Below, one piece after another: positions 308 to 48,152 of a DNA stretch of 64,000 nucleotides. A program made the position numbers and the translations under genes. The stretch is from IMG/VR virus record IMGVR_UViG_3300023171_000009, positions 9,113-73,112 of that record; one strand, given 5' to 3'. Each line of letters opens with the position of its first letter. The first letter of the stretch is position 1. The notes beneath the pieces were generated by a model. That model was given only the letters and a program-made list of their open reading frames with translations, had not been told where the DNA came from and did no database searches. This DNA comes from a virus.

Positions 308-3175
308 TTATCCTCTTGAAACACTCTTTCTTCTTTCTGCTTTTTGCCGTCCGGTTTTGCTGTCCACTTTTTCTTTTTCAGTCCAGCTTACTCTCTGTCC
401 TAGTAAAACGGTATAAACTCCACAAATTGCATCCGCAACGTCCTTGGATGTAACTGGACCGCTTGACGGATGATCTATCTTACTAGGCTTCTTCTTGAAA
501 TCCGGAACTAACGCTAGCAACTCTTTAAATCCAATTTCATTGACTGGACAAGCCACACGTTTTTGATGAAGGGCGGATCTTAGTGCATCATAAGTTACCA
601 AATCTTCAACACTTATTTTATCGGTTTTAAAACCTTTACTGACAAGTATCTGCCTGGTGTCCACAGACTGGAAATTATCCATAGTTACAATCTGGATAGG
701 TATTTTCAAAACGTCTCTCAGATAATAAACCCAATGTCTTATGATATCGATATTAATTTGCCCGGACTTAGGTGGTTGAACGGCTAATGCAAAATCATAA
801 ACGACATACGGAAAGGACTCTTCCACAAGCTTTAAATTTCCATCAGAATCAATAGTTGATGATTGTATAGGAACAACATCAAGGACGAATCCGCATGCTA
901 TGCCTACCCGATCTTGTGATAAAGCCAAATCGATATGTAAAGCTCTTGGACATTCAGGCCATGGAGTGGCGTAATCATCAGTTACTTCCGGCATTCCATC
1001 ATCAAATAAAGTTACAGTTTGTTTCCATGGAGAAATCATTCCTAGGGCTTTCCAAGCTTTAGCCATATTCCAAACGTCTTCACGATCTTTAAAGTAGACG
1101 TTAGAACTTCTAGCGCTTCTTCCGCCAAAATCGCGAAGCGCCCCCTCCGGGTCTGTTATAAAATGTTGTTTATATCTTACAGGAACTTCCATTATCTCAG
1201 CTCCTTTTCTAGGAGTTTCATCTGTGGAAAGTATACGCGTCATCGCCCTTTCATCCCCTACTTGGACTTTGAATTTTTGCTCTGTTTCCAATGTGGAGTC
1301 AGGATAAACTTCCCAATGCGCCTTCTCCCAAATAAATACCTTATGAGTGTCCTCAGTATTATCAGCAGCTAATACTTCTTTTTTTCTAACTTCTGTAAAG
1401 TCTCCCGCATGTCCTTTGGAAGACACCATGCAAAACCTTCCTATATCGGAATCAGGGAAACGGCTTGCTCTACGGCGTATAAGCTTTTTATAAACTTCTT
1501 TAGCTTGGTCAAATTCCCCCGTCTCCTCTTTGGACCTTTTAGACTTCTCAACAAAAGTCATGAAATTTAACTCATCGACAATTGCCGATATAACGTCTTC
1601 ACCTAAAAATTTATCAGCACTTGCGGCACCATACATAATCATAAGATTATGAGGAAACAGCATCATTTCTTCTTTGCGACGATTATATGGGAATTGTTCT
1701 TTAAAGTAAGGGCAGCGTTTTATGATGTTTTTTAGCTTTCCGTAAGTTACGCGCTTAGCCAATGAATCTGTTTTATTCAAACATAAAACCATAACGGGAG
1801 AACCAGGAAGCATTCCTAGGTAGAGTTGAGGTTGTTTGAAAGTAGATAGGTTATATAGATCGTAAAGAGTAACAATTTGTGCTAGGGTCGTTTTTCCGCA
1901 GTTCCCTGTTATAAATATATTTCCCTCACGTCTTAACACTAGTAATCCGGTGTTTACCCTGAAACAATATTTAAAGCCATCTGTAGATGGAACTCTTAAT
2001 ATATCTGACTTAGGAGTTGCAGCCATACTAGTTAGTGCATTCTTAGCCTTATGCACTATGTAATCTGTCTTACCGTCATCGCGAAGGTAACCACGCAATG
2101 AGGCTCTTTGCCCTAAAGTCGAAAAAGCATATTGTATAAAATCAGCCGAATCTTTATTTCGAGTATAAAAGGTTTGATCGGTTACAGAACCATCCCATCT
2201 TAAGCATTCATCACATATAATAACTAATTGCTCAGAAGAAGCTTGCCAGAAAGTTTTAAACGATTTTACTCTTAAAGGAGCTTCGAAATAAAATTTAACG
2301 TAACCCTCCGCTCCTTTATGCTCTTCCCAAGGGATGCCCGAGTCTTTCAATAGTATTCTTGCTCTATGTATCTTGTCTGTGCGTTTTATGTTTACAGTGC
2401 ATGCGTGACTCATCCTAGAAAAAGAACCATCTGCGATCACCATAACCATAACTCTTAAATCTTCATCGGACAATTCTAGCCCTATGTAATCAGGCACTTT
2501 AAATGTAGTCTGAAAGGAGCCTCTGAATCCGTTAGTAGAAGCGTTGTGCATTAGGGCTACTTCCTTTGCTGACTTAAATAGCCAATTCTTTTTTGCCTTA
2601 TAATAAACACGATGATCGTCGCATAGCATTTGGTCTATGCCATACTTAGTCTTAAAATGCCACATTTCAGCACAAGGCAATTTTATGTATTCTTTAGGAA
2701 TAACATAGTTTATCTCTTGTGTTACCGGGTCATATTCTGCAACCCTCTCTCCAGCATAGCTAGATATTTTTCTCCATCCATCAGGAGTTAAATATTCAGT
2801 CTTACTATCTACACAGCCGATCCCGCCCATTAACAGCGCCTCCATGTATCCACCGTCAGCAATACTTACAGCGGCCTCTAATACTTTTGCAAATACGCCT
2901 TGCTGTGGCGTAGTTTTATTTGACTTATCGGTTACAACGTCAAGCCCTAAAAAATCCTTGTCCCGGACAAACTGTTCCATTGAAACAGGGCGATGGCTTC
3001 TCCCGATAACACTAGCAAAATTCCCCTTCGCTTTTTTTAAATCATCTATGAAATCTGTAAACGTGGGTATGCTAAAATTAGGATTAGCTAATACAAGTTC
3101 TGATATTGCTTGATTAAGTATATCAGCAGGAGCGTTTGCTATAGCTAGTAATTGAGATTCCGTAAGGACTGCCAT
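308..3175 (-). CDS. terL: Terminase large subunit (intein-containing)
   Basis: Walker A GGIG/CGKTT split by intein, Walker B IVDE, C-terminal RNase H-like nuclease (HIDLA, MDNFQS, KDVADA). Start moved to ATG 3175; the track's TTG start lies inside the 14-bp site. Confidence 0.92.
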   Translation of the reverse strand: MAVLTESQLLAIANAPADILNQAISELVLANPNFSIPTFTDFIDDLKKAKGNFASVIGRSHRPVSMEQFVRDKDFLGLDVVTDKSNKTTPQQGVFAKVLEAAVSIADGGYMEALLMGGIGCVDSKTEYLTPDGWRKISSYAGERVAEYDPVTQEINYVIPKEYIKLPCAEMWHFKTKYGIDQMLCDDHRVYYKAKKNWLFKSAKEVALMHNASTNGFRGSFQTTFKVPDYIGLELSDEDLRVMVMVIADGSFSRMSHACTVNIKRTDKIHRARILLKDSGIPWEEHKGAEGYVKFYFEAPLRVKSFKTFWQASSEQLVIICDECLRWDGSVTDQTFYTRNKDSADFIQYAFSTLGQRASLRGYLRDDGKTDYIVHKAKNALTSMAATPKSDILRVPSTDGFKYCFRVNTGLLVLRREGNIFITGNCGKTTLAQIVTLYDLYNLSTFKQPQLYLGMLPGSPVMVLCLNKTDSLAKRVTYGKLKNIIKRCPYFKEQFPYNRRKEEMMLFPHNLMIMYGAASADKFLGEDVISAIVDELNFMTFVEKSKRSKEETGEFDQAKEVYKKLIRRRASRFPDSDIGRFCMVSSKGHAGDFTEVRKKEVLAADNTEDTHKVFIWEKAHWEVYPDSTLETEQKFKVQVGDERAMTRILSTDETPRKGAEIMEVPVRYKQHFITDPEGALRDFGGRSARSSNVYFKDREDVWNMAKAWKALGMISPWKQTVTLFDDGMPEVTDDYATPWPECPRALHIDLALSQDRVGIACGFVLDVVPIQSSTIDSDGNLKLVEESFPYVVYDFALAVQPPKSGQINIDIIRHWVYYLRDVLKIPIQIVTMDNFQSVDTRQILVSKGFKTDKISVEDLVTYDALRSALHQKRVACPVNEIGFKELLALVPDFKKKPSKIDHPSSGPVTSKDVADAICGVYTVLLGQRVSWTEKEKVDSKTGRQKAERRKSVSRG
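1901..2815 (-). mobile_element. Intein with LAGLIDADG-type endonuclease, 305 aa
   Basis: Begins CVDSKTEYLTPDGW, ends GNIFITGN followed by extein Cys; internal VIADGSF and LRWDGSV blocks. Confidence 0.9.
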
Positions 3176-5163: not shown

Positions 5164-5248
5164 TGGCTGGCATGACAGGACTTGAACCTGCATAGCAATT
5201 AAGCTGACTTACGTTTAGTCTGGAATACCAATTCTCCTTCACATGCCA
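5164..5248 (-). tRNA. tRNA-like gene with long variable arm and non-canonical anticodon loop
   Basis: 7-bp acceptor TGGCATG/CATGCCA, G73, encoded CCA, T-arm GCAGG-TTCAAGT-CCTGT, D-loop AATTGGTA, variable arm AGC-TTAATT-GCT; anticodon arm GACT-AAACGTA-AGTC. Confidence 0.75.
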
Positions 5249-5257
5249 AAAATTGTG

Positions 5258-5655
5258 CCACCCGCCTTTACTAAACTATATAGAACGTTCCACCGACTAT
5301 ATTGTTATTAAGTTTATTTTAAAGGCGGGTGGTCTTTGTCTCTTCTTTCATATACCATTCAATGTCTGTGATCCGCCACAGTGCTATTTTAAGGTAAGCT
5401 ACATAGTGCTTGAAATTTTTCAGGCCAATTGTTATAAGTTGCGCGGCTTCCTTTACCGCAATGCTTTTTGCTTTCTAGGTTGGCCAGTGGTCGGGCTTCG
5501 CCCCGCTGCTATAAGAATGTCAACTACATAGTGCTTGAACGGTTAAGGGTTAAAAGCTACAAATATCTAAGTTTTTTCATAAGGGCTGTGTTCGTGCTAC
5601 GCCACGATGCTATGAGTAACTACATTGGTTTAGAAGTTTAACCTTCTGGTTGAGG
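5258..5655 (-). ncRNA. Candidate ~400 nt structured non-coding leader RNA with three repeated hairpin units
   Basis: No credible ORF; three ATGTAGYT...ATAGCA-stem-GCGNAK-stem units with different but pairing stems; 13-bp inverted repeat at 5258-5332. Confidence 0.6.
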
Positions 5656-6127: not shown

Positions 6128-6469
6128 TTACTCTGATAAACCGCATTTTTCATCAATTATTTGGAAGCTTCTCTTAAGGTGCTCTATAATTAAAGGCGAT
6201 ATCAATTTAAAGACGTGATAATCGACCGCTGTTTTAAAAATAGAATTAATTTCTTCATAAAACCGTTTATTCTCTTCCTCTATCTCTCTATAAAGGACGC
6301 CTTTTATCTCTTTCTTGTGCTCGTTAATCTTTAACTCTTTAAGATTAGGAATAACACAAACTTCATGGCCTTGCACAACAGAAGATGCATAGATTGTTGT
6401 TTGGGTAGTGATCATTACTCCATCTGGACCACATGGAGTAGTGTTTGTCTGATAAACAAGCTTTTGCAT
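6128..6469 (-). CDS. Hypothetical protein
   Basis: ORF in packed array. Confidence 0.65.
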   Translation of the reverse strand: MQKLVYQTNTTPCGPDGVMITTQTTIYASSVVQGHEVCVIPNLKELKINEHKKEIKGVLYREIEEENKRFYEEINSIFKTAVDYHVFKLISPLIIEHLKRSFQIIDEKCGLSE

Positions 6470-7787: not shown

Positions 7788-7951
7788 GAAAAGAATAGTT
7801 GTTTCACCCCTCCTGCTAACATCCAACCTGCAAGAATAAAAAGAGCGCTGGAAAGTAAAAATCCATACTCCTCTTCGCCTTTTTGCCTAAATCGATCCTT
7901 CAGACATCTAGCAACCAAAATTAATACAATAGAAGCTAAAATAAATCTCAT
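7784..7951 (-). CDS. 55-aa membrane protein (not in ORF track)
   Basis: MRFILASIVLILVARC...ALFILAGWMLAGG; ATGA-coupled on both sides. Confidence 0.6.
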   Translation of the reverse strand: MRFILASIVLILVARCLKDRFRQKGEEEYGFLLSSALFILAGWMLAGGVKQLFFS

Positions 7952-8427
7952 GATGTTAATAAAGGGCAGGTTGTTAACTCGGGAATTATAGTTCCCTTGA
8001 GTGGTGGATATGAGATAAAATAAATAAATTTATTGGTGATTGGGATTTTACTTGATTTAATCAGCAGTCTCAACAATTCAAACCCGAAATCAAAATTTCC
8101 CCAATTCGCGGCAAACCATTGAGACAAGGACGGGTTAGGGCTTACGCTGTATCCGGGTAGATCAAATCTAGCTCCATAATTTTGATAAGCGTCAATGCCT
8201 GATAGCCTGTAAACATGACCGAGAGCTTTAAACAGATATCCGGTTAAGTAATCAATCTCAGTTTGGCTGTGCTCAGCTATGTATTTTGCAACAATTTCAC
8301 TTTCTGGCCCTTTAGAAAGCTTTGGGTGATAGTCTTTAACCAAGCCCGTGATCGGAGGCTTGAACTGTGGCCGGGGTTCCGGTCTTAAAATAACTTTCGA
8401 CGGTGGTTTTTTTATCTGGAATTTCAT
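7948..8427 (-). CDS. Hypothetical protein
   Basis: Start MKFQIKK. Confidence 0.6.
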   Translation of the reverse strand: MKFQIKKPPSKVILRPEPRPQFKPPITGLVKDYHPKLSKGPESEIVAKYIAEHSQTEIDYLTGYLFKALGHVYRLSGIDAYQNYGARFDLPGYSVSPNPSLSQWFAANWGNFDFGFELLRLLIKSSKIPITNKFIYFISYPPLKGTIIPELTTCPLLTS

Positions 8428-31669: not shown

Positions 31670-32966
31670 CCTTTATCTGTTCGCACAAGGAGAGTCGTTT
31701 AGTTGAAATAGCTCTTAAAAATGGTATAGCGGTATCGATAGGCGTAATCCAAATAGGGTCTAATTTATCAGGGAATAAGCGTCTAACCCGCCCTAACTCC
31801 TGTTCCGGTTCTGAACTTGGGGTTAAATCTATACCTGCGTTAAGCCGTGGTATATTCTTAGCTCTGCGAAAGGTTCCCCTTGTTGCTAGTATTACCCTTG
31901 CTTCAGTTTCAATAAATTGTTTTTCTTTATCGGTAAGTTTTGCTTTATACACAAAACAAGTAATACCCATTGCAGTCAACAAATCTCTCAAAGTCTCAAG
32001 TTGAGATATCCGGTCAGAGACTCCTAAAACATGGCGTCCGCGATTTATCATCCATCTTAAATAACCGGCTATCCAGTGGTTTCTAGCACCGTCAGTAGCA
32101 ACAGCCGTGATAACTTTACCTAAACTATAAGATCGTTGAATATGTAGCGGGTATTTACCAGTATACACAATAGGCTTAACGGTCAACGGCATTACATCCT
32201 GACCGCTAACTACAAAATCACTTCCAAATTGATTGATGAATAAACCTTGGCAACCGTCTTTACGTTTCCAAGTAGCGGACAAGGCGAGCTTGTATTTTGC
32301 GGGGAATAATCCTATCGCTTTACTAAAACTTCTTGCCCCTAGAACGTCGCACTCATCAAACGAAATAAAACCAAAAGCATTGTAAAATTCTCTAGGATAC
32401 CTCCTTTGAACTAACGAATGCACCATCGCAATTGAGATAGGCTTATTGTATTCACATTTATCAGATTGGATTATCCCGATGTGATCTTCAGCCAATCCAA
32501 GATGTTTTGTTATCTCAAGTTTCCACTGCCTTATAAGACTATCTTCTGGAACTACTATCAAAGTTCTAAGCTTCAAGGAGGACGCTATTTTAAGCGCCGA
32601 CACGGTTTTTCCACTCCCGGTTTGAGCATTACCAAAAGCGACACCTTTAGTCTTGAGCCTTGAAAATAGGCCGTCAAAAAACTGTTGCTGTGCTTCGTCG
32701 CGTGCAACGATTTCACTTTTTGCTAGCTGGGGAATTACAGGCCCTTTATAGCGTAAATCTAACGAATTCTCGTTTTGGAAATACTCTTGCGACCACGCTA
32801 TAGGCAAGAAAATGTGAGTTCCAGAAATCCGATACCCTAAAATAGAGTCTGGCTCTTTTTTAGAAAAAGATTTAGGCGTATATGTATGAATTCGCTTTAT
32901 CCTAGCAAGCTCGCTTTTTTCAATCTCAAATAAAGGCTTGGATGCCCATGAGCGAAGTGTATACAT
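31647..32966 (-). CDS. Superfamily 2 helicase
   Basis: AQTGSGKT, DECD, SAT..R.DG, QELGRVRR. Confidence 0.88.
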   Translation of the reverse strand: MYTLRSWASKPLFEIEKSELARIKRIHTYTPKSFSKKEPDSILGYRISGTHIFLPIAWSQEYFQNENSLDLRYKGPVIPQLAKSEIVARDEAQQQFFDGLFSRLKTKGVAFGNAQTGSGKTVSALKIASSLKLRTLIVVPEDSLIRQWKLEITKHLGLAEDHIGIIQSDKCEYNKPISIAMVHSLVQRRYPREFYNAFGFISFDECDVLGARSFSKAIGLFPAKYKLALSATWKRKDGCQGLFINQFGSDFVVSGQDVMPLTVKPIVYTGKYPLHIQRSYSLGKVITAVATDGARNHWIAGYLRWMINRGRHVLGVSDRISQLETLRDLLTAMGITCFVYKAKLTDKEKQFIETEARVILATRGTFRRAKNIPRLNAGIDLTPSSEPEQELGRVRRLFPDKLDPIWITPIDTAIPFLRAISTKRLSLCEQIKGVTVANL

Positions 32967-32982
32967 ATACGCCTAATTGTTA

Positions 32983-41996: not shown

Positions 41997-42025
41997 TGGT
42001 TAGTTTTAATTTGAAATAGTTGCAA

Positions 42026-42338: not shown

Positions 42339-42614
42339 TTATGAAATCGTTGCAGATTTAGAACTAGAATTCTTAGAGGTTTCAATAAAGAAACAGCCGT
42401 CGTATATAGGCAAAGTCCGGTTGGGAGGAACAGCGATGATAAATATAAAAGGGCCTTCGTATTTTCTAAGTAATTTACGTTTATAGATTATATCCATAAC
42501 GCCAATATCATTCGTTACCTCAAATGTAGAGTTAGGAGGCACTATCCTCCCATCAAGTGCTTGTGCTACCGTAGTTTTACCTGACCCCTGTGGTCCATAT
42601 ATGATAGTGTGCAT
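42339..42614 (-). CDS. Small P-loop protein
   Basis: YGPQGSGKTT. Confidence 0.7.
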   Translation of the reverse strand: MHTIIYGPQGSGKTTVAQALDGRIVPPNSTFEVTNDIGVMDIIYKRKLLRKYEGPFIFIIAVPPNRTLPIYDGCFFIETSKNSSSKSATIS

Positions 42615-42630
42615 ATCTTTATATCTAGCA

Positions 42631-42774
42631 ATGAATAAAATTCCGCCTCCTTGGTAACTAAGTTACTAGGCTACACAAAAGGCTCAATGGCTAACAAAAC
42701 AACCTTTTACCTGCTACACAGATCGATTTTAGAAGAATCGACGGCAGGCACCAAAGAAGCGGAATTTTATTCAT
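42631..42774 (-). ncRNA. Fold-back structured RNA, 25-bp closing stem
   Basis: ATGAATAAAATTCCGC perfect 16-bp inverted repeat, extending to 25 bp with two G-U pairs on the minus strand; three internal hairpins; promoter TTGCAA-N16-TATTAT at 42815-42842. Confidence 0.6.
42691..42774 (-). CDS. 27-aa hydrophobic peptide
   Basis: MNKIPLLWCLPSILLKSICVAGKRLFC after an A/C-rich leader. Confidence 0.4.
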   Translation of the reverse strand: MNKIPLLWCLPSILLKSICVAGKRLFC

Positions 42775-42843
42775 AAACTGTTTGTTGTTTTGTTATTATG
42801 TAACCTAGTTCAGTATAATAACCTAACTGTTTAAGATTGCAAG

Positions 42844-43062
42844 TTAAAGTTTTTCAGGCGAAAAAGTGATAGTAGGGACTTCAAAACTTTGTGGAGGGCA
42901 TATTGAAACGCCTTTAATTCCATTAGTAGTAGTAATTAATACGCACCAATCTTCAGGATGCTCACTTAAAGCATTTTTTAGTTCCTTTGATAAATGGGGC
43001 AGTTCCAACGTTTGTTTAACTGTTAGAGTTATACGATTTAAAGGTAATAAATCTGTTTTCAT
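42844..43062 (-). CDS. Hypothetical protein
   Basis: Start MKTDLLP. Confidence 0.55.
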   Translation of the reverse strand: MKTDLLPLNRITLTVKQTLELPHLSKELKNALSEHPEDWCVLITTTNGIKGVSICPPQSFEVPTITFSPEKL

Positions 43063-43987: not shown

Positions 43988-44180
43988 TTTTATACGCTTT
44001 ACTATGAATTTCTGCAACCTTCCTAGCGGACGTTAGCTTGTTAAATACGCCTAAAGGTATATGATTTCCAGTAGGACGACAAGATAGAGTAAATTCTTTA
44101 GCCTGGTGACTGATTACATAAGGTCCGGATATGGAAAGCTGGCATACATTTTCGGTAGCAGGAATGTTAGTCCATTTCAT
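43929..44180 (-). CDS. Hypothetical protein (paralog of 45238-45441)
   Basis: MKWTNIPAT. Confidence 0.6.
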   Translation of the reverse strand: MKWTNIPATENVCQLSISGPYVISHQAKEFTLSCRPTGNHIPLGVFNKLTSARKVAEIHSKAYKKYVRSTRNNNLSHGQNSCP

Positions 44181-44331
44181 ATATCAATATTTATGGATCA
44201 TTAGTAACCAAACCGGAGTCTTAAATTTAGCCTCCAAAGATTTTAAATACTCCATAGGATCTTCGTTAATAACAACAGTGCAAGGATTGATTATATCAGT
44301 CTGGTATGTGATTAGGTATTTCATTTTGCAA

Positions 44332-47726: not shown

Positions 47727-48152
47727 CTAAACACTAGAACTTGCAACAGGAACCATATTTAAAAGTTTATTTAACTTATTGAGTGACGTTAACGTAGATT
47801 TTAAATCAAGTATAGCACGCTCTAATGCCTCTTCAGTCACATTGTAATTATATGCCAACGAGACTCCACCCTCGGTTACGCACTTTACCCGCTCCTGCCC
47901 CCCCTCCCCCTCTTGGCCTAATAATCCAAAATGCCCCCCTAATCCATTTTCTCTATAGTATAGAACATTCGATCTAAAAGGCCCATTAGGCTCTGTGCCA
48001 GCCAATAGTTTGCCTGTTTTAGTAAAATAAAGGCAGAAGACGCCACATCCTTCATACAAAAAATATACTTTGTTTTTAACAACTCGAATATTTTTAATAC
48101 TTTCGATGGGGAAACCTGCTACTTTTGCTATTTGTTCAACTGTAAAGTTCAT
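47727..48152 (-). CDS. Hypothetical protein
   Basis: ORF. Confidence 0.65.
   Translation of the reverse strand: MNFTVEQIAKVAGFPIESIKNIRVVKNKVYFLYEGCGVFCLYFTKTGKLLAGTEPNGPFRSNVLYYRENGLGGHFGLLGQEGEGGQERVKCVTEGGVSLAYNYNVTEEALERAILDLKSTLTSLNKLNKLLNMVPVASSSV

Follow-up and report, generated by a model that had tools for sequence, protein, structure and literature searches.

The 229-nt gap at 42615-42843 of the window encodes, on the minus strand, a predicted two-state RNA whose structure, in our folding computations, is real, strand-specific, and far beyond chance. A 25-bp helix at the 5' end of the transcript (helix L, state A) is predicted to form first and to give way to a 26-bp helix (P1, state B); both helices, their statistical significance, the order of their formation, and the gene-like context of a start codon that makes up the first 3 nt of P1 were established in silico. 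Since both states control the region where translation of a 27-codon reading frame would begin, we favour, at a probability of about 0.4, the reading of a self-locking leader that gates this small frame at the head of a promoter-to-hairpin cassette, in the manner of a type I toxin mRNA.

Genomic setting

The window is the whole stretch of DNA analysed here, 64,000 nt long (bases 9113-73112 of an IMG/VR virus record that has 98,476 bp and is estimated to be 89% complete). All its long ORFs are on the minus strand, and the gap accordingly has same-strand genes on both sides. The neighbourhood is a replication module comprising a winged-helix protein of 93 aa (initiator- or DnaD-like), proteins of 488 and 181 aa, DnaB, PolA, and a DnaG-type primase; the counterpart of the 488-aa protein in phage RcMenchie is annotated as helix-turn-helix DNA binding. 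The element lies two genes past the winged-helix initiator-like gene and ahead of the initiator-like, DnaB, and PolA genes. Directly upstream is an ORFan gene of 72 aa (42844-43062, minus strand; the public gene call likewise gives 72 aa). Judged from the gene map of the replication region, the phage looks lytic. At the end of the record, outside the window, the last 126 nt (genome 98351-98476) duplicate bases 22-147, which makes it probable that the genome behind this 'linear' record is closed or terminally redundant.

Promoter and leader

The promoter TTGCAA-N16-TATTAT that a first-pass annotation had proposed is present on the minus strand as a sigma-70-like site at 42842-42815 (-35 at 42842-42837, -10 at 42820-42815), starting 1 nt past the TAA stop (42846-42844) of the 72-aa gene. 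From its 9/12 match to the consensus, a transcript start at about 42810-42808 is predicted. Promoter-like matches are frequent here, amounting to 10 in 1.7 kb against 5.5±2.5 in shuffles; the candidate is intergenic, and its -35 and spacing are common to an intergenic promoter-like site at 47746. The leader that follows (42809-42775, minus strand) is A/C-rich, as had been claimed, and G-poor, and so resembles the real starts of this phage; its nucleotides 42808-42784 form the 5' strand of helix L. In the phage as a whole, G is scarce (3-10%) at most positions from -13 to -1 before the starts and Shine-Dalgarno-like motifs are rarer than background: Shine-Dalgarno sites are not used by this phage. 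In contrast, the genes of two cultured relatives, RHph_I4 and JP1, have Shine-Dalgarno-like sequences upstream in the gaps that were read. At several promoter-like sites of the phage (e.g., 22423, 34586, 50475, and 13628) the -10 box ends only 6-9 nt ahead of an ATG, and these short distances suggest leaderless mRNAs.

A strand-specific closing helix

An inverted repeat with arms of 25 nt (42631-42655 and 42750-42774; 92% complementary) brackets the interior of the element. The long-range stem of 25 bp with 16 perfect pairs, starting at the ATG, that had been noticed earlier is thus present, and in the fold it extends to 26 bp. This closing helix, P1, joins a 5' arm of 26 nt (42774-42749, minus strand), found by both repeat search and folding, to a 3' arm of 26 nt (42656-42631) that ends 16 nt before the ATG of the next gene, which encodes a P-loop protein; it contains the 16 perfect pairs and three G.U pairs, and has a mean pair probability of 0.95. 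Both 'mismatches' of the repeat, as had also been remarked, pair as G-U solely on the transcribed strand (U42758.G42647 and U42755.G42650) and would be C-A on the plus strand; the third G.U lies at 42749/42656. The 3' arm holds a perfect AAGGAGG motif (42652-42646, minus strand) that arises from two of the U.G pairs and is sequestered within P1. An in-frame AUU follows after 4 nt and the P-loop ATG after 33 nt; elsewhere, the genome avoids motifs of this kind.

As minus-strand RNA, the 181 nt at 42620-42800 fold to -56.5 kcal/mol (z -6.4), a value that none of 200 shuffles equalled. The plus-strand RNA of the same stretch reaches -48.1 kcal/mol (z -4.4), 8 kcal/mol short of the minus strand, because the G.U pairs of the latter would be C-A mismatches on the former. 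There are nine G.U pairs in total, seven in state B and two in helix L, and every one favours the minus strand; selection has therefore acted on the RNA of the sense strand or, with lower likelihood, on this strand in the form of single-stranded DNA; single-stranded DNA folds are significant too (z -5.5 for the minus and -3.7 for the plus strand). On the scale of the genome, there are two perfect 16-mer inverted-repeat seeds with a spacing of 40-400 nt, against none in 30 dinucleotide shuffles, and seven 14-mer seeds, against 0.17 in shuffles. A coarse genome-wide energy scan missed the element, as no 160-nt window framed the fold.

The genome's only other perfect 16-bp long-range inverted repeat, UUAGGCGUAUAUGUAU / AUACAUAUACGCCUAA, lies at 32872-32976 (minus strand; span 105 nt). 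Its 5' arm begins 7 nt past the stop of a 378-aa gene and holds the AUG (32966) of a 439-aa ResIII/DEAD helicase gene, while its 3' arm falls within the coding region of the helicase. The arrangement has the look of translational coupling mediated by RNA structure, or else of a further processing site.

Within P1, three hairpins had been reported, of which two are solid and one is weak. P2 (42748-42710, minus strand) consists of a 5-bp helix, an asymmetric internal loop with the first UGUGUAGC, a 7-bp helix, and the 7-nt loop CUUCUAA; its pair probabilities are 0.82 and 0.93, and it is found in state A as well as in state B. P3 (42709-42676), specific to state B, has 9 bp and a 16-nt loop (p 0.69). 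P4, with its 5' side within 42669-42658, has a probability of 0.37. The two interior motifs also noted earlier are there: TGTGTAGC occurs exactly twice in the window, both times within the element. A repeated 8-mer inside 144 nt is not rare alone, and the second copy is part of a helix L partner; no statistic backs the suggested link of these motifs to the TGTAGY units at 5.4-5.6 kb. A tRNA-like 3' end, GCAGGTTCAAGTCCTGTCATGCCAGCCA, with a 5' TGGCATG partner (about 5166-5250, minus strand), for which ARAGORN makes no call, lies downstream of three repeats of an ATGTAGY...AGCA-hairpin unit (about 5365-5625).

Several more familiar identities for the element were considered and rejected. It is not an intrinsic terminator or attenuator: P1 ends in 12 A-U pairs and then UGCUAGAUAUAAAG, with no U-tract. 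A tRNA-like RNA was discarded; the CUUCUAA loop of P2 is anticodon-loop-like, but a T-arm is missing and ARAGORN detects no tRNA. An insertion of the MITE or terminal-inverted-repeat kind was dismissed too, as the flanks (...CAGTTT and TGCTAG...) differ, no target duplication is seen, and the element is present in a single copy.

A competing helix at the transcript 5' end

In a repeat search, 12 nt of the leader (42795-42784) proved perfectly complementary to the loop of P3 (42703-42692). They belong to helix L, in which 42808-42784 pair over 25 bp with 42703-42692 and, P2 remaining intact inside, with 42678-42666; the latter partner overlaps both P4, on its 5' side, and the second UGUGUAGC. 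We modelled the co-transcriptional order by folding transcripts from 42808 to successive 3' ends. Helix L is the minimum-energy fold in every prefix ending at 42690-42650, and P1 takes over once its 3' arm is present. The prefix energy is 20.7 kcal/mol lower with helix L; none of 300 leader shuffles that preserve composition gains as much, and among 147 other gene leaders of this phage a single one does. In the full RNA, state B has -58.2 kcal/mol versus -45.5 kcal/mol with state A enforced. The helix begins at 42808-42809, the start expected 5-7 nt past TATTAT, and upstream read-through transcripts have the same predicted folding behaviour.

The strands follow one another in the order L5', P1 5', L3', P1 3', which is a pseudoknot topology. 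Interleaved in this way with linkers of 9 nt, the full helices of 25 and 26 bp should be unable to coexist, so that in the model the start region of the small frame is partly covered at every stage: helix L covers positions -10 to -34 and leaves the AUG itself in an open loop, and P1 then takes in the AUG.

The 27-codon reading frame

The frame MNKIPLLWCLPSILLKSICVAGKRLFC (42774-42691, minus strand, with its stop UAG at 42693-42691) has the sequence and position given in the first-pass annotation; its last codons overlap the helix L partner. Scored with a weight matrix of the phage's real starts, its start context reaches 5.81, which is above 80% of the genes and is attained by just 0.42% of 1683 other ATGs. 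The start is, as had been claimed, buried: the predicted probability of being unpaired over the AUG and the next 12 nt is 0.02, below that of all 147 called genes (mean 0.51, minimum 0.10). The peptide has a GRAVY of 1.06 and a Kyte-Doolittle 19-residue maximum of 1.76, which passes a hydropathy threshold, with Pro5, Pro11, and Lys16 falling within its only hydrophobic stretch.

Its codon usage resembles that of non-coding sequence. The codon log-likelihood is -0.15 per codon versus 0.30±0.11 for genes, the same as in off-frame ORFs and lower than in 98.9% of real 26-codon segments, and an open frame of 27 codons is not rare at 38% GC. The start-context score mostly rewards A-rich, G-poor sequence and, since helix L too needs an A/C-rich leader to pair with the G/U-rich interior, it is not independent evidence. 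The peptide has no match in Pfam at E<=10.

The downstream cassette

The gene that follows the element (42614-42339, minus strand) encodes a minimal P-loop NTPase or kinase-like ORFan of 91 aa, which found only itself among 5.8 billion proteins. Its structure-based look-alikes are small kinases (CobU, the APS-kinase/Zeta type, and the N-domain of RapZ), which serve as leads only. Next comes an ORFan of 103 aa, or 119 aa from a TTG start (42337-42026), with a hydrophobic N-terminal half that may be read as about two membrane helices. A GC-rich hairpin with an A/U-rich tail (41990-41958; z -4.6) fails the strict U-tract rule and is a possible terminator closing the cassette. Taken together, the promoter, the leader, the two ORFan genes, and the hairpin look like an accessory cassette of the moron type. 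A 14-bp site, TGAAATCGTTGCAA, is found in about 75 copies (<=2 mismatches), in both orientations, across the 98 kb, in genes and at gene borders; two of these copies (42342-42355 and 42012-42025) flank the 119-aa gene, after which the GC-rich hairpin follows.

In a strict scan, the stretch from 42631 to the P-loop ATG (42614) is free of terminators, as are both strands near the element. The element had also been proposed as a riboregulator of the P-loop gene. The fold gives no backing to this: the predicted accessibility of the P-loop start is 0.53 with the element and 0.51 without it, and we rejected control of P-loop translation by occlusion. With that start unchanged, the start of the 27-codon frame is the only initiation region that both helices control.

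Homologue searches and cultured relatives

Searches for relatives of the element itself were empty. Rfam gave no match at gathering thresholds over the whole window, and at E<=10 over 42550-42900 its sole match was a chance lncRNA (E 3.1) outside the element; no tRNA was called by ARAGORN. A blastn search of the locus against 50,697 phage records found no match. In IMG/VR, the 16-mer arm retrieved chance matches of a single arm only, the pattern of P2 plus motif nothing related, and the pattern of both arms nothing at all; the latter had 15 matches each in GTDB (596 Gb of reference genomes) and in the JGI metagenomes, none of them a real copy but unrelated repeats, mostly from Campylobacter MAGs, without internal similarity. 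Nor does the 98-kb genome hold a second copy or a complementary locus. No convincing homologue was found for the three neighbour proteins, two of which were compared with 5.8 billion proteins and the third with 1.84 billion cluster representatives; two weak partial matches of the 119-aa protein were judged not homologous. The 488-aa protein has one match, 38% identical, on a 1.9-kb contig.

PolA leads to cultured relatives at 33-36% identity: Rhizobium phages RHph_I4, P11VFA, and L338C; Agrobacterium phage JP1; the Rhodobacter RcMenchie group; and Aeromonas phage HJ05. A gene order is common to four relatives, namely an AAA-ATPase, a gene of about 210-240 aa, a pair of small genes (DUF1257 and DUF2997 in the annotation of RHph_I4), variable small genes, a gene of about 180 aa, DnaB, and PolA. 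The position of the 488-aa gene is taken by a gene of about 460-485 aa in RHph_I4, RcMenchie, and HJ05, and is absent in JP1. Relative to these four, the block from the winged-helix to the 119-aa gene, including the element, is an insertion.

A single-sequence covariance model of the element found no match in the four syntenic cultured relatives. The gaps in their variable regions have unrelated folds of a similar style, with closing stems of 8 to 27 bp enclosing two to four hairpins: RcMenchie 3000-3165 has a closing stem of 10 + 17 bp (gap z -4.8), and JP1 6245-6403 (gap z -5.7) and RHph_I4 7884-7996 (gap z -3.9) have long closing stems and multibranch interiors. The structured gaps of these three phages contain no comparable small ORF and have no Rfam match, and diverged copies of the folds were not found, each being confined to its own phage or to near-identical clones. 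By analogy, such folds weakly favour a non-coding role. Positional homology with the RHph_I4 element was rejected, the equivalent gap in the window (44018-44331) being coding and unstructured (z +1.6).

Two of these gaps have features of their own. The unannotated 166-nt fold of RcMenchie (-70 kcal/mol) is identical in RcDurkin and RcTiptonus and 99.5% identical in RcKickapoo, and a promoter-like site, TTGACC (2962)...TAGGTT, has its predicted start at about the first base of the closing stem; this fold of a cultured phage may be a stable non-coding RNA. The 159-nt gap of JP1 is closed by GUAUAUAC/GUAUAUAC, its 3' arm abuts the ATG of the next gene, and it contains, as read, several GTGACA/TGTCAC repeats followed by an AT-rich block; it appears operator- or origin-like as much as RNA-like.

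Competing explanations

Nearly as likely as the self-locking leader is a non-coding element acting in cis on an early polycistronic transcript, in which P1 would serve as an RNase III site, or as a barrier to 3' exonucleases and an insulator, that sets mRNA half-lives and parts the P-loop cassette from the genes upstream of it; the 27-codon frame would be fortuitous, and helix L would just time the availability of P1 or protect the 5' end. RNase III sites call for a duplex of at least 20 bp in a transcribed intercistronic region, and P1 offers 26 bp with 16 perfect pairs in the 229-nt gap, with no terminator on either side. The non-coding-like codon usage of the frame points in the same direction, as do the similarly built long-stem multibranch folds of the syntenic cultured relatives, which lack small ORFs, although these folds have neither sequence nor covariance-model similarity to the element. 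A plain processing site, however, needs no alternative helix of 25 bp at the transcript 5' end, nor a start context from the top quintile that coincides exactly with the first base of the duplex. That a stable small RNA is released from the transcript to act in trans is improbable. P1 would then be a protective terminal helix (6S-like, Y-RNA-like, or that of a decoy), and its target, a protein or an RNA, would be bound by the single-stranded UGUGUAGC or by the loop motifs. The closed four-way-junction architecture with its own predicted promoter would suit such an RNA, and so would the presence of P2, with its U-turn-type 7-nt loop, in both states and the promoter-like site at the first base of the closing stem in the RcMenchie analogue; but there is no Rfam family even at E<=10, no 3' terminator, no complementary target elsewhere in the phage, and no homologue in the collections searched.

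We give little credence to a feature acting at the level of DNA, be it an origin of replication, a site of single-strand initiation, a palindrome bound by a protein, or an insertion of the MITE type with terminal inverted repeats. The location in a replication module and the significant single-stranded DNA folds speak for it, together with the repeats and AT-rich block of the JP1 analogue. Against this, all G.U (G.T) pairs favour one strand, an interleaved second helix would be senseless for a cruciform, there are no iterons and no target-site duplication, and the element is single in the genome and has no real copy in the databases searched. Least probable of all is a canonical type I toxin-antitoxin locus, with a toxic membrane peptide whose mRNA is neutralised by an antisense RNA of the phage. 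The hydrophobic 27-aa ORF, its buried start, and the fold that is metastable and then locked are what such a locus would have, and weak promoter-like matches do occur on the plus strand (42576-42605 and 42770-42819). These matches are, however, at chance frequency, and the consensus scans for an antisense RNA found neither a plus-strand terminator nor a second, complementary locus; the peptide matches no toxin family, the mRNA is without its own 3' end, and the module lies in the replication region of what looks like a lytic phage.

Proposed mechanism and significance

In the self-locking leader, the gap would be the 5' leader of a small cassette with its own promoter and leader, followed by the P-loop ORFan, the membrane-type ORFan, and the GC hairpin. 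During transcription, the 5' end (42808-42784) would first form helix L with 42703-42692 and 42678-42666, covering the A/C-rich landing zone of the ribosome ahead of the small frame. Once transcribed, the final 26 nt (42656-42631) would pair with 42774-42749 in the more stable P1, which would bury the AUG together with the first eight codons; the interior would refold to P2, P3, and P4. Translation of the peptide would then need a trigger: the 3' arm of P1 might be removed or cleaved, RNase III might cut the 26-bp duplex, or a 30S subunit on standby on the free leader might invade the 12 A-U pairs at the base of P1. Translation of the frame, the role of the peptide, and the trigger are what we infer from the fold.

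If the frame is real, a self-locking mRNA in the style of type I toxins would operate without an antisense partner in an apparently lytic phage that is independent of Shine-Dalgarno sites, and the gating of a membrane peptide during infection would depend solely on processing and on the order of RNA folding. A bolder version, which we regard as rather doubtful, is an antitoxin-free phage 'RNA timer', in which a lock on the nascent 5' end and then a 26-bp lock on the start codon silence a micropeptide until processing or invasion; such a device would be a post-transcriptional clock, complete in itself, for a membrane-active peptide with a role in lysis timing, superinfection exclusion, or abortive killing. 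If the element is a processing site instead, it would show how an uncultured phage group partitions its early transcripts. In either reading, it heads a wholly ORFan cassette. The helices are long, clean, and separable by mutation, and the switch is therefore directly testable in vitro.

Comparison with known systems

A long duplex in an intercistronic gap is the layout of the early RNase III sites of T7 and of the lambda N-leader site. The element resembles these T7 R sites and the lambda N leader in placing such a duplex in the gap of a polycistronic early transcript, directly before a gene start; it differs in its four-way-junction interior, where those have a simple bulged hairpin, in the competing 25-bp helix, and in the gene-like start on the first base of the duplex. 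The gaps of RcMenchie, JP1, and RHph_I4 occupy the same syntenic variable region as the element, with the DUF2997 gene on one side and the initiator, DnaB, and PolA genes on the other, whereas those gaps have no ATG-started small hydrophobic ORF and no sequence or covariance-model similarity to it.

The first-pass annotation had spoken of a type I toxin-like architecture. The architecture stands as far as the buried AUG, the gene-like context, and the additional early helix are concerned; the antitoxin, the separate 3' end, and the toxin-family match are unsupported. Sequestration of the initiation region by folding (P1, pair probability 0.95) and a metastable co-transcriptional structure (helix L) are both found in prediction. 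The transcript is no discrete mRNA with a 3' end of its own, there being no terminator before the P-loop gene, and neither a described toxin family nor conservation of the peptide emerged from the Pfam and locus searches. Since antitoxin RNA, own 3' end, and homology are all wanting, the element cannot be counted among the type I toxin-antitoxin systems.

For tisB/istR-1 of E. coli, translation is explained by a ribosome standby model. In dinQ/agrB and tisB/istR-1 alike, 5' processing activates the mRNA and a trans-encoded sRNA represses it; here, P1 would stay closed if the 5' leader were removed, and no sRNA was detected. The likeness to both lies in a peptide of about 27-29 aa, in an unstructured upstream segment that could be a ribosome standby site, and in mutually exclusive helices that set whether the start opens; such mutually exclusive structures are described for the dinQ mRNA of E. 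coli (PMC5066626). Metastable structures are likewise described for the mRNA of the aapA3 toxin of Helicobacter pylori, paired with IsoA3 (PMC6733600). Unlike aapA3/IsoA3 and hok/Sok, the element locks an AUG and a leader without a Shine-Dalgarno site, its P1 does not join the 5' and 3' ends of the mRNA but lies in a transcript that runs into two genes, and neither an antisense RNA nor sequence homology was found. Not a demonstrated member of the class, the leader may nevertheless work like a type I toxin mRNA: as in aapA3/IsoA3 and hok/Sok, a small hydrophobic ORF has its initiation region covered by a predicted long-range pairing that would leave the transcript inert, an earlier metastable structure covers part of that region, and loss of the 3' part would change the fold.
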